A DNA stretch of 64,000 bases from a bacterium (GCA_030429765.1 JAUIER010000003.1:144402-208401); one strand, 5' to 3'. Positions 43,901 through 46,900 are shown, counted from the first letter of the stretch. Program-made: numbers and translations. Notes: a model not told the origin generated them from the letters alone.

Positions 43901-46900
43901 ATGGACGACTGAATTTAAACCGTTGGTCGAAGAATTTGTGTCGCAGGGATTAAGTCGCACGGAAGCGGTGTCTATCATTCTGCAATGGAAGAACCCAAAG
44001 GCTAGATGGGAGAAATACTTGAAACCGGTCCGGGATGAATTGGTACGGGATGGTCTGTCCCCGACGACGGCCACACGGGTTGTGATTCGATGGACCAATC
44101 CTGACCAGAAGTGGTCACAGGAGCTTAAGCCAATACGAGGGCAGCTGATCGATCGGGGGATGAGTCTGGGTGATGCCACAGATGCCGTAATATCCTGGAG
44201 TTATCCGCTGGAACGATACGACGCGGTACAACAATCCATAGCACTCTTGGCAGCAGATAGTGTCATTCTGACCGGCAGGATCCGGGAAATATTTTGGGAA
44301 CATAACTATCAGGGAGTGCTTGAACGATTAATTCAACAGCCGGGCGTATCGAGGTCCAAGGCATTGGACTATGCCCAACCCATCAAAGATTTTGAAGAAC
44401 GGTACTTGGCAGACCGGGCGATGCTTTTTGATGCAGAAACCGAGGCCAAGTTGGATGCGCCACTGTCCGAAAATCTGTACTTCTCTGAGCGGCTGCAGAC
44501 GGTATTCCGCCGAAATGGTTTGATAACTCATCGTGATCTAACGTCCATGACGGCAATTGAGTTTACACGGCTTCCGGAGATTGGAGATATTCTCTCTGTG
44601 GAGGCCGAGCAAACATTGGAGCAGGACGGCTTAACATTTGGTATGACAAAGTCGGGTCTGCGGGTGTGGCTACCGACGCTGTATCAGACGCTTCGTAGTG
44701 ATCCTGTGTTGGGAACCAAGAAACGGTTAATGATTATCCTGGAAGATCGCGGCATAGAAAAGTTTGGTGACCTGGTTAAGTACTCCTACTCTGACCTGGT
44801 GAATATGCCGGGGATCAATTGGTCGAGCGCGATGATTCTCGAACAACGGCTGCAGGCGCACGGATTGACTTTAGGTGTGGGTAAATGGGTCAGAAAATTG
44901 CAGTCGCTTGAGGATAGGGCGATGCTGTCGGATGTTCCGTCACTGAAATTCGTGAAACTGGTGTTGCCGGAGCTGAATCGTCAGGTGAATATGTCGGCGA
45001 TTGGACGGAGGGTTCGGACGTTTCGTACCGACCGCTCGGAGACGCAGACTCAGACCAGTCAGCGTTCCGGAGTCAAGTACGCGACGTATCTCACCCTTGA
45101 GCGGGGCGCGCGAGCGGATACGGATCTCAAGAATATGATCCTGCTACGCAATCACTTTGGTACGTCATTGAGCGTGCTGGTGGATGGGCAGGCGTCGGCG
45201 TTTGATACGTCCGGACCGATTCTCTTTGACGCGATTGCCCCGGTGGTCGCTAACAATCTGGTGTTGCTTCGAACGGCCATGGGATTGACATTGAAAGAAC
45301 TGGCGGCCCATGTGGGGATGTCGAGTGAATATTTGGTCAGGATTGAGAGCGGCGACCTAGGTGAAATGACCCTGCAGAATATCGTCTCCTTGTCAGAAAC
45401 TTTCGGGATTCATCCGGAGGTGTTTATTTCGCGGAAATTGGAACTTGCCGATATGATTGAGATCATCAGCGATACGGATCAGTTCAGACAGTTACCGGAA
45501 ACGCTGGACGCGTCCCGTCGACGAGAGATTGGCAGCCGGATTGCCATTTTACGTCGATTGCGTCAACTCACCCAGGAAGATGTAGCGGTACGGTTGGGTA
45601 TTACACCGGATCAACTCGGCAAGTTGGAGAACGGCCGGCTTCAGCAATTGAATGTTGAGTTCTTTGTCAAGCTGCAGAGTATTCTGGATGCTTCCGTATA
45701 CTTTTTACTGACCGGAAAGGAGAACGGGCATTCGAGGGTGGAATTGGACGTTGAACGTGTGCGACAGGATTTCGGAGAGAACTTGATTGTGCTGCAGGAA
45801 TTCTTTGGAATGACCTATAAGACATTTGCCGAAAAGCTGGGGATTCCGACTCGGACGTTAACCACGCTCAAAAACGGGGGGCTCTACCAGTTGGAGCATA
45901 TCAATCGGGTGGCACGACGCACGCGTGTACCGATTCATATTCTGCTGGGTTCGAGTGCTGCTTTTCGGGATTACCTCGACGGGCACAGCCAACGGGTTTT
46001 AAATGCCAATGTTCCAGAACAGCTGGACGCGGAGCAGGTGCGTCGGAGTTTGAGGTTACATCTGGAGGCACAAGGCCGTTCAGATCAGGAGCTGCTGGAT
46101 TATGTGTCGCAATATCATACCAATGATTTAACGAAGTTTCTTTCTGGAAAGTCTCAAACGGTCTCACTAAAGACGCTGCTATTGGCGGCTAACTTTCTTG
46201 GGACCAATTTTCTGAATGTACTCACTGGATCTTTGTGGAATGGAAATGTAGAACTGGAAACGCCTGCTTATATGGTCAGTCGGATGGATCGGGAGCTGTA
46301 CAGGGCCATGCAGAGTATTATTCATGAGCAGGGACGGACTGACACTGTATCCTCATCAGCCGGACTACCGTCGATCAATGTATTTCTGGAATTTATTCAC
46401 GCGACGGATTCTTCCGTCGAAGAAGTGTTGCGCCAGGCGGAGCGTGATCCGGTTCAAGATCTGTTAATGAATTGGGGGCGCGTTCGTAAGAATAGTCTAG
46501 AGGACGCGGCGATGATATCAACGACTTTGCGAGCCAGAAACGCACGCCTTCGGGAGGAATACGCTTTACAACGGTTGTATCAACCATCCGATCGAATCGA
46601 AATCGTTCAAGCCGAATATTTCTCCGCGTTTTTTAGACAGAATGATATTGATATCGCGGCATTTGCCCGACGGGCTGACGTTCCGGAGTGGATGGTGTAC
46701 GACCTACTGGAAGGTCGCGAGTTGGAATTGGCCGAGTCCATACGGGTGCTGAAGGCATTGTATGAGGTCGCCACGCTGCAAGAGGCTCTTGAAATGCATG
46801 CCTTTACATATCGGTATTGGCAGGAGCATCGTGGAGAGGCAGATCAACAGCCATTGTTGAATGCGCAATTGATCCGCGAGCGCCATAACGCGCGGACAGA

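Follow-up and report, generated by a model that had tools for sequence, protein, structure and literature searches.

A six-position cassette of XRE helix-turn-helix domains carried as cargo by an apparently exported, Omnitrophota-associated giant protein

What might an array of phage-repressor-type helix-turn-helix (HTH) domains do inside a giant protein that begins with an apparent export signal? This question is raised by a 64,000-nucleotide stretch of bacterial DNA (GCA_030429765.1 JAUIER010000003.1:144402-208401; hereafter the window, i.e., the whole stretch that was analysed), in which an open reading frame (ORF) at 40908..52103 of the plus strand (+), the strand on which all features given below also lie, remains unbroken over 11.2 kb and encodes a protein of 3,731 aa. 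An identical protein is on record from NCBI (P0001). An initial annotation of this locus had described, at 45060-46770, at least five XRE-family HTH units in a protein that is not itself a regulator, located just behind two helix-hairpin-helix (HhH) modules resembling the C-terminal domain of the RNA polymerase alpha subunit (alpha-CTD), and had regarded such tandem arrays as unusual and as implying multivalent DNA recognition. New in the present study are a fixed six-position cassette of such domains, (A-B)x3 in its make-up, its cargo role in an apparently exported, Omnitrophota-associated scaffold, and the short motif that marks the junctions between cargo modules.

Units and pairs of the helix-turn-helix cassette

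The XRE/Cro-C1 HTH domains were found to lie back to back over aa 1362-1846 (nt 44991-46445), within a cargo module (aa 1340-1865; 44925..46502) that is composed of a short leader, six XRE positions and a short tail. This module is delimited by a collinear alignment of homologues (alignment A1, see below) and by two D-x-A-M motifs, which flank the cassette in every full-length homologue. The Pfam HTH_3 profile scored 86.6 bits (E 1.1e-24) against the whole protein and 100.8 bits, over 4 stretches, against the segment alone, while HTH_31, HTH_19, HTH_26 and HTH_25 were also found to match the protein. Both peptides that the initial annotation had quoted as examples are present: LTLKELAAHVGMSSEYLVRIESGD spans aa 1460-1483 (nt 45285-45356), while LTQEDVAVRLGITPDQLGKLENGR spans aa 1554-1577 (nt 45567-45638).

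To describe the individual domains, the region was cut into units, named U0 to U5 by position, each of which was scanned singly with Pfam (HTH_3 cut-off, 23 bits); a family hidden Markov model (HMM) was derived from 29 units, all of them taken from family members other than the giant protein; and aa 1337-1869 were modelled with AlphaFold2 (AF2) from a six-row alignment, giving a mean predicted local distance difference test score (pLDDT) of 72.5. The first unit, U0 (type A, aa 1362-1426; 44991..45185), scored 21.3 bits with HTH_3 (E 2.8e-4), i.e., just below the cut-off, and matched the family HMM at 4.7e-10, and its AF2 model exhibits five helices with block pLDDT values of 77-93. U1 (type B, aa 1440-1508; 45225..45431) scored 38.4 bits with HTH_3 and is also borne out by the AF2 model, and U2 (type A, aa 1535-1602; 45510..45713) scored 36.5 bits with HTH_31 and 35.9 bits with HTH_3, the family HMM matching each of the two at 3.9e-13; among NCBIfam models, U2 matched RstR (1.1e-10) and Wmk (5.4e-8). 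Matches of U3 (type B, aa 1615-1679; 45750..45944) to HTH_26 (E 0.0026) and HTH_3 (E 0.019) are weak; the family HMM recognizes it at 7.8e-10, and five helices are present in its AF2 model. U4 (type A, aa 1708-1773; 46029..46226) represents a divergent XRE HTH for which no Pfam match was obtained and the family HMM match was partial (E 0.0023); its AF2 model again possesses five helices (block pLDDT ~72-78), and the profile of this position across homologues matched the U1 profile with 98.1% probability. The collinear homologues, the profile-profile comparison and the AF2 fold are the grounds on which U4 is counted as a unit. The final position, U5 (type B, aa 1788-1846; 46269..46445), has decayed in the giant protein: alignments indicate that 8 residues are gone from roughly the stretch of the recognition helix (helix 3), both Pfam and the family HMM missed it, and in the AF2 model its pLDDT is below 56 and helices 2 and 3 are absent. 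Across homologues, the profile of the U5 position nonetheless matched that of U1 with 97.7% probability.

Each of U0 to U4 thus exhibits the five-helix XRE pattern in the AF2 model, with 10-residue block means of ~70-93, and the canonical signature 'G(h)s...h..hE.G' is retained in U0 to U3. Foldseek comparisons of single units with SinR, C.AhdI, C.BclI, P22 c2 and a 434-repressor variant returned target-normalised template-modelling (TM) scores of 0.75-0.87 at root-mean-square deviations of 1.2-2.3 A, and no PDB entry was found by Foldseek to cover more than one unit at once. Profile searches of the PDB likewise returned C.BclI, SinR, CylR2, P22 c2 and the 434 repressor, as well as ribosome-bound structures of MBF1/EDF1. 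With profile scores above the gathering threshold and a five-helix, lambda-repressor-like fold for U0 to U4, these domains are members of the XRE/Cro-C1 HTH family, and the count stands at four robust units (U0-U3), one divergent but intact unit (U4) and one decayed unit (U5). The description of back-to-back XRE HTHs in the initial annotation therefore holds, neither a lack of HTH profile hits nor a non-DNA-binding helical bundle having been returned, and so does its count of at least five. The interval it gave (aa 1385-1954) overlaps the array, but begins inside U0 and ends exactly at a seventh candidate, U6 (aa 1902-1954; 46611..46769), which lies in the next module, appeared HTH-like by eye and had been counted as the last unit. 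This candidate was rejected, as it yielded no Pfam match, less than 4% in hhalign and an E-value of 0.45 with the family HMM. An HMM built from the giant protein's own four units, which is circular, detected no further units, and a blastp search of the giant protein against itself revealed no internal repeats, the divergence among the units being too great for a pairwise method.

Relatives of the array were obtained when 1.84 billion representative proteins were searched exhaustively with HMMER, 170 matches being returned at E <= 0.001. Word-index homology searches with aa 1180-2040 and with alignment A1 (8,000 candidates each) gave no match, and no relative was recovered when metagenomes were scanned with the single cassette. 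Four of the HMMER matches are collinear with the cassette over four to five units (U0-U3 or U0-U4) at ~25% identity, i.e., P0002 (3,701 aa), P0003 (1,355 aa), P0005 (1,797 aa) and P0011 (912 aa), the last of which carries the NCBI name of an HTH protein from Omnitrophota. These relatives come from separate sources, namely JGI, Logan and NCBI records, and P0002 contains the whole cassette twice. Alignment A1, which comprises the giant protein, both copies of P0002, P0003, P0005 and P0011, resolves six unit positions joined by linkers that are specific to their position. The linker motif '(L/I)TG.E...F.PYD' occurs after U0, U2 and U4 only, U1 and U2 are joined by a different conserved linker, 'LLR.NI.LDHMI.RV.DD.QW..LP', and yet another is found between U3 and U4. 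Profile-profile scores were 76-80 among U0, U2 and U4 and 49-68 among U1, U3 and U5; against the even units, U3 and U5 scored only 27-45, while U1, which is less distinct, scored 65-74. The pairwise scores and the linker pattern together indicate a triplicated two-domain (A-B) unit, and the cassette is accordingly a conserved set of six positions in three A-B pairs rather than an ad hoc run of repeats.

Scaffold family, junction motif and other cargo

The giant protein belongs to a family with three fixed parts, i.e., a signal peptide, an N-domain of ~380 aa and a C-domain of ~65 aa, between which the cargo varies. Its N-terminus (aa 1-38; 40908..41021) is composed of an RR pair, a hydrophobic stretch, and VHA followed by VQ, and was annotated as a signal peptide or signal anchor. 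The hydrophobic segment (aa ~16-39) is the only strong one that hydropathy analysis detected in the protein, it is preceded by the positive charges R14 and R15, and the A-Q pair right behind it is nearly invariant among 124 family sequences. The N-domain (aa ~39-420; 41022..42167), for which there is no Pfam model, was matched by tblastn to 20 loci of species-representative genomes (L001-L020) at 42-54% identity over aa ~13-400, with E-values down to 1e-133. Fifteen of these loci are labelled Omnitrophota, 4 'uncultured Planctomycetales' and 1 Lysobacterales, and one genome possesses several paralogues. At E <= 1e-20, at least 455 proteins carry the N-domain (P0155-P0274 among them); most are unnamed, and those with names are mostly a 'hypothetical protein' from Omnitrophota. 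The scaffold family is thus restricted almost entirely to Omnitrophota-labelled genomes.

Relatives identified by the N-domain range from ~780 to more than 2,800 aa, and beyond this domain they have only the C-terminal domain in common. In the giant protein, the C-domain (51813..52007) reads GGINF ... PVIIQIAPVTNLPLLLGL, and the family consensus is GGI(D/N)(L/F) ... PVIINI.P..N(L/I)...LG. A blastp query of aa 3616-3708 returned 14 paralogues, and phmmer matches for the C-domain were obtained in P0002, P0003, P0005 and P0079; P0002, P0003 and P0005 are members of the scaffold family, and P0079 has the C-domain. A further member, P0268 (500 aa), lacks cargo altogether, its N-domain being followed by the C-domain. 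The shared terminal domains and this cargo-less form define the family as a scaffold into which variable cargo is inserted. An AF2 model of P0268 gave pLDDT values mostly above 90 for the N-domain and ~30 for the C-domain, for which the alignment held few rows, and a Foldseek search of the PDB with this model returned no significant fold relative of the N-domain. No description of the scaffold family was found in the literature searched.

The D-x-A-M motif that flanks the cassette recurs along the giant protein, where each border between modules is marked by it. The pattern D.AM[LMTIF] was observed 8 times against 0.17 expected from shuffling; across 24 family proteins (39.8 thousand residues) D.AM was observed 50 times against 3.8 expected, and it was absent from the 15,032 residues encoded by the window's other ORFs. 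Its usual places are just past the N-domain, between recognizable modules and just ahead of the C-domain. The eight junctions of the giant protein are located at aa 847, 1169, 1336, 1866, 2127, 2463, 2867 and 3627 (43446-43457, 44412-44423, 44913-44924, 46503-46514, 47286-47297, 48294-48305, 49506-49517 and 51786-51797, respectively), with a variant, DASM, at 42180-42191. The HTH module is opened by DRAM(L) at 44913..44924 and closed by DAAM(I) at 46503..46514, and the modules so delimited include the alpha-CTD-like pair (aa 1173-1335), the HTH cassette (1340-1865), a methyltransferase (2131-2462) and a kinase together with a Fic-like domain (2871-3626). The giant protein therefore has all three features of the family, i.e., a signal peptide with N-domain, a C-domain, and cargo separated by D-x-A-M-(L/M/T).

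Residues flanking the motif are not conserved across the family, and in the AF2 model pLDDT falls below 50 in the segments beside the two junctions that bound the HTH module. A short linear motif within flexible linkers resembles a protease site, and these junctions may be processing sites of a polyprotein. In the giant gene, the junctions are almost always encoded as GAC NNN GCG ATG, with GCG at 8/8 junctions compared to 43% of all Ala codons, and GAC at 7/8 compared to 36% of Asp codons. Recombination acting on the nucleotide sequence and internal translation starts were also considered as explanations of the junction; both were rejected because synonymous junction codons vary in P0002 (locus L021), which indicates selection on the peptide.

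The remaining cargo is of mixed character. A GHKL (HATPase_c-like) ATPase at 42489..42782 matches Pfam HATPase_c at E 0.0016, below the cut-off, and possesses the N-box, G1 and G2 motifs. A methyltransferase-like module (47778..48260) matches Methyltransf_23 at E 0.0031, also below the cut-off, and contains VDIFAGEG as motif I for S-adenosylmethionine (SAM). The Kdo/RIO/Bud32-like kinase (49701..50126) scored 24.9 bits with Pfam Kdo (cut-off 21.3), is supported by NCBIfam kinase matches, and contains HGD...N followed by IDIED. In these three modules the nucleotide- or SAM-binding and catalytic motifs are retained. The fourth, a degenerate Fic/Doc-like domain (aa 3474-3567; 51327..51608; Pfam Fic E 0.0017, below the cut-off), has QVFQNGNHR at aa 3545 in place of HxFx(D/E)GNGR and lacks the catalytic His, and it is probably inactive or non-canonical. 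With these modules behind an N-terminal signal or anchor, the host protein is indeed no ordinary regulator, in agreement with the initial annotation.

The two HhH domains ahead of the array (aa 1186-1246 and 1268-1324; 44463..44879) form a module of their own between the junctions at aa 1169 and 1336. Their position is as the initial annotation had described, although the sequence matches behind the assignment proved weak: the first copy matched NCBIfam RpoA (positions 248-318) at E 0.0029, with no Pfam match, and for the second the Thermus thermophilus alpha-CTD structure 1doq gave E 0.005, while Pfam RNA_pol_A_CTD gave E 0.12 with 12.6 bits, short of the 23.8 required by that family (PF03118). 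'Alpha-CTD-like' is a reasonable label for both. An exhaustive search identified proteins with runs of such domains as the nearest relatives of the pair. Such runs were observed in the metagenomic proteins P0012, P0016, P0024, P0045, P0072 and P0101, with up to 8 matched stretches in P0101, and P0024 combines one XRE HTH with two alpha-CTD-like domains, the pairing of these two domain types thus recurring elsewhere. Of note, the module ahead of the alpha-CTD-like pair contains four head-to-tail repeats of ~35 aa (43842-44258; aa 979-1117) with the pattern GLS..eA..vv..W.nP...W...LKP.R..L..., for which no match was found in Pfam or among PDB sequences; they could be a helical and possibly nucleic-acid-binding repeat.

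The window represents ordinary chromosome. All 46 of its substantial non-overlapping ORFs (window 1-64000), every large one included, are on the plus strand, and the cumulative GC skew climbs steadily over the whole window, a combination consistent with one replichore whose genes are strongly biased towards one strand. Encoded products include ArgRS, RecJ, M16, M3 and M20 peptidases, and GGDEF and EAL proteins; GlgB, GH57 and MalQ are encoded directly upstream of the giant gene, and the genes downstream of it encode a lipoprotein, an epimerase, a coiled-coil protein and pyruvate kinase. A phage or mobile-element origin was rejected on the basis of these housekeeping neighbours (ArgRS, RecJ, the glycogen enzymes, pyruvate kinase) and of the absence of tRNA genes from the 64-kb window. 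The strongest AT skew of the window (0.26; 53780-55468) coincides with an ORF of 562 aa that lies 1.7 kb downstream of the giant gene and has no Pfam match; in its product, a hydrophobic and probably transmembrane segment at the N-terminus is accompanied by an acidic stretch of low complexity and by an extended Q/E/K-rich region of coiled-coil appearance. At the locus of P0002 (L021 1306-3616 and 6001-17106), two cassettes are accompanied by three acetyltransferase-like (GNAT-like) modules. Immediately upstream of the P0002 gene are pilM, pilN, a weak pilO-like gene and the genes of two response regulators, a neighbourhood that the window does not share.

A proposed role for the cassette, and its alternatives

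Omnitrophota are widespread and nearly all uncultured. A predatory or parasitic life has been proposed for most of them (PMC10066038). The reading that is tentatively preferred here, as the most plausible of those considered albeit far from assured, is that the giant protein is exported and modular, and that its HTH cassette acts on DNA located beyond the cytoplasm of the producing cell, the likeliest setting being a target cell, following release at the junctions. The scaffold, from N-domain to C-domain, would export interchangeable modules by way of the signal peptide, and the modules would be freed at the D-x-A-M-L junctions. Free XRE regulators bind DNA as dimers; by analogy, and given a short conserved linker, each A-B pair is most simply taken for a putative covalent pseudo-dimer on two adjacent DNA half-sites, as proposed for Wmk (see below), and three successive pairs could then bind a long or composite site with high avidity, or bridge several sites. 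A basic pI (8.4-10.8 from residue counts) is found for four of the six units, in a protein most of whose other modules have a pI of 4.3-5.5, and together with the retained signature this indirectly favours the multivalent DNA recognition that the initial annotation had suggested. The DNA in question would most likely be that of a prey or host cell rather than the producer's chromosome, an assumption favoured by the combination of an apparently exported scaffold, intracellular-type cargo and a proposed predatory or parasitic lifestyle.

Several observations weigh against this proposal. Within the cassette, U1 and the decayed U5 are acidic in the giant protein, and the AF2 model, obtained from only 6 sequences, has a predicted TM score (pTM) of 0.52 and does not fix the arrangement of the domains relative to each other. 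Exposed residues of the recognition helix, compared by eye in alignment A1, vary among homologues, so that no common target can be deduced. As regards export, the N-terminus is suggested to be a Sec signal peptide, or at least an anchor with its N-terminus inside, on the basis of inspection by eye and hydropathy only; the scaffold gives no clue as to the transport route, given an N-domain with no PDB relative and a C-domain modelled at a pLDDT of ~30; and no protease, secretion-system or immunity genes adjoin the giant gene, its neighbours being those of glycogen metabolism and other housekeeping functions. The loss of the catalytic His from the Fic-like module weakens the case that the enzyme modules need a cytoplasm in which to act. 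Finally, that the source organism is a member of the Omnitrophota is no more than probable, as judged from the distribution of the scaffold family.

Among the alternatives, the one that survives best, while still unlikely, is that the cassette is a scaffold for protein or RNA, acting either as an in-chain antitoxin that holds the enzyme modules inactive until processing, or as a binder of ribosomes or RNA in the manner of MBF1/EDF1. XRE domains also serve in roles other than DNA binding, MBF1/EDF1 on ribosomes being an example, and ribosome-bound structures of these proteins are among the PDB profile matches. NCBIfam matches of the units are mostly to type II antitoxins (HipB, HigA, MqsA, Y4mF) and to aMBF1, XRE domains and toxin-like folds (Fic/Doc, kinase) are located in one and the same protein, and the differing recognition-helix residues noted above are in line with this alternative. 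The antitoxin version is nevertheless weakened by P0003, in which no Pfam family other than HTH was found at E 1e-4 and which thus presents no recognizable enzyme to be neutralised; the same observation favours a cassette that is autonomous, in line with the preferred reading. Known antitoxins, moreover, are single-domain proteins in which a separate C- or N-terminal region, rather than the HTH, binds the toxin. The basic character of four of the six units in an acidic protein also argues against this alternative. Were the cassette found not to bind DNA, the XRE fold would here have been put to a different use on a large scale.

Less probable is a role in the capture of periplasmic or extracellular DNA, with no delivery to another cell, in which the XRE cassette and the alpha-CTD-like HhH pair would together serve ComEA-like uptake, scavenging or matrix anchoring. 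In ComEA, HhH domains form the DNA receptor, and the giant protein combines a signal peptide with two kinds of putative DNA-binding module in one chain. The pilus genes adjoining the P0002 gene (pilM, pilN and the weak pilO-like gene) would suit such a role, but this neighbourhood is not conserved, glycogen genes being found in its place in the window. Furthermore, XRE domains are usually sequence-specific and ill suited to arbitrary DNA, and a GHKL ATPase, a SAM-dependent methyltransferase and a kinase with intact motifs have no evident use where ATP and SAM are lacking.

These same ATP- and SAM-dependent modules suit the cytoplasm, as does the fact that XRE domains are overwhelmingly found in cytoplasmic transcription factors, and both would be accommodated if the protein were a membrane-tethered regulator of the producer's own genes, with an uncleaved N-terminal anchor, a cytoplasmic chain, and an HTH array and alpha-CTD-like domains acting on its own promoters; the latter domains hint at contact with promoter DNA or the transcription machinery. 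This arrangement is considered quite unlikely. R14 and R15 ahead of the hydrophobic segment and the A-Q pair behind it correspond to a cleaved Sec signal or to an anchor with its N-terminus inside, either of which places the chain outside; paralogues within one genome carry quite different cargo, and a cargo-less form exists; and the selection on the junction motif at the protein level is left unexplained. An artefact, whether an ORF that was wrongly assembled or fused or a pseudogene in decay, so that the array has no function as a unit, is very improbable. In its favour, the source is probably a metagenome-assembled genome, and both U5 and the Fic motif have degenerated. Against it, the frame is open for 11.2 kb, the same terminal domains recur at no fewer than 20 genome loci and in hundreds of proteins, the six positions reappear in collinear order in four further proteins, whose records come from separate sources, and the junction is kept at the protein level with varying codons in P0002.

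To return to the preferred reading, that of an exported cassette acting on DNA in a target cell, a more far-reaching version can be put forward as speculation with only a small chance of being correct. Omnitrophota would export 'polyprotein' effectors in which a fixed scaffold carries cargo that is cut at D-x-A-M|L, and the hexa-HTH cassette, a recurrent cargo of three pseudo-dimers, would enter a prey or host cell and there bind the chromosome so as to silence, reprogram or mark it. If this were true, a secreted family with a recognizable scaffold, a junction motif and a recurrent DNA-binding cassette would provide expressible reagents, namely the cassette, A-B pairs and junction peptides, and the succession of N-domain, D-x-A-M-L junctions and C-domain would supply a search rule for a phylum-wide catalogue of cargo. 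The cassette is in addition a natural set of covalently chained XRE domains, of use in understanding or engineering multi-site DNA recognition.

Comparison with known systems

As judged by profile and predicted fold, the array units possess the same five-helix domain as SinR, the 434 and P22 c2 repressors, C.AhdI and C.BclI. Those regulators contain a single such domain, form non-covalent dimers on palindromic operators and act in the cytoplasm of the cell that produces them, whereas the giant protein has six positions in one chain of 3,731 aa that starts with a signal peptide. It also differs from type II XRE antitoxins (HipB, HigA, MqsA), as matches to these families fall far below the cut-offs, the domains are internal, and the neighbours are glycogen enzymes and a lipoprotein.

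Tandem XRE arrays as such turned out to be less unusual than the initial annotation had supposed, since many of the top 150 HMMER matches contain 3-18 XRE units. Such metagenomic poly-HTH_3 proteins, of which no published description was found, resemble the cassette in carrying 3 to 18 units per protein (18 in P0008, 14 in P0004, 13 in P0038 and 11 in P0006). They differ in that near-identical repeats fill most of the chain, the N-domain/C-domain scaffold is absent, and no position-by-position alignment with the cassette is obtained. In P0008, a sigma-70 region 4 domain was observed ahead of the array.

A parallel in terms of proposed action is Wmk, the male-killing protein of the Wolbachia prophage WO, which has two XRE HTHs in one chain and is a bacterial protein thought to act in the cell of another organism. 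Its covalently linked XRE domains have been proposed to represent a joined dimer (PMC6736233). The giant protein is not a member of the Wmk family in NCBIfam (NF047948), for which it scored 32.6 bits against 300 with one HTH covered. Wmk is also a protein of ~300 aa with two domains, encoded in a prophage, while the giant protein presents three pairs within a modular giant encoded on the chromosome.

With respect to overall architecture, MARTX toxins have conserved N- and C-terminal parts around a variable string of effectors, with processing sites in between. The giant protein likewise has fixed ends and variable modules, an analogy in architecture only, as no sequence relationship was seen. 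RTX-type repeats and a cysteine protease domain were absent from the Pfam matches (E <= 1) of the whole protein, and the putative D-x-A-M-L site contrasts with the Leu-X site of MARTX.

Giant proteins have also been reported from Omnitrophota ('Archaeovorins', and those of dockerin type), for which an association with secretion and cleavage into several products have been suggested (bioRxiv 10.1101/2023.11.21.568195). Neither HTH domains nor the N-domain/C-domain scaffold is mentioned in the accounts of giant proteins in this phylum that were consulted. The published giants exceed 20,000-85,000 aa and are equipped with many transmembrane helices, adhesion and carbohydrate-active domains, and C39 or S8 peptidases, whereas the present protein, from the same presumed phylum, is smaller and has one hydrophobic segment and intracellular-type cargo. 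If its cassette were indeed released into other cells as part of a polyprotein effector, it would be a counterpart, directed by one prokaryote at another, of TAL effectors, Wmk and similar nucleus-targeted effectors.

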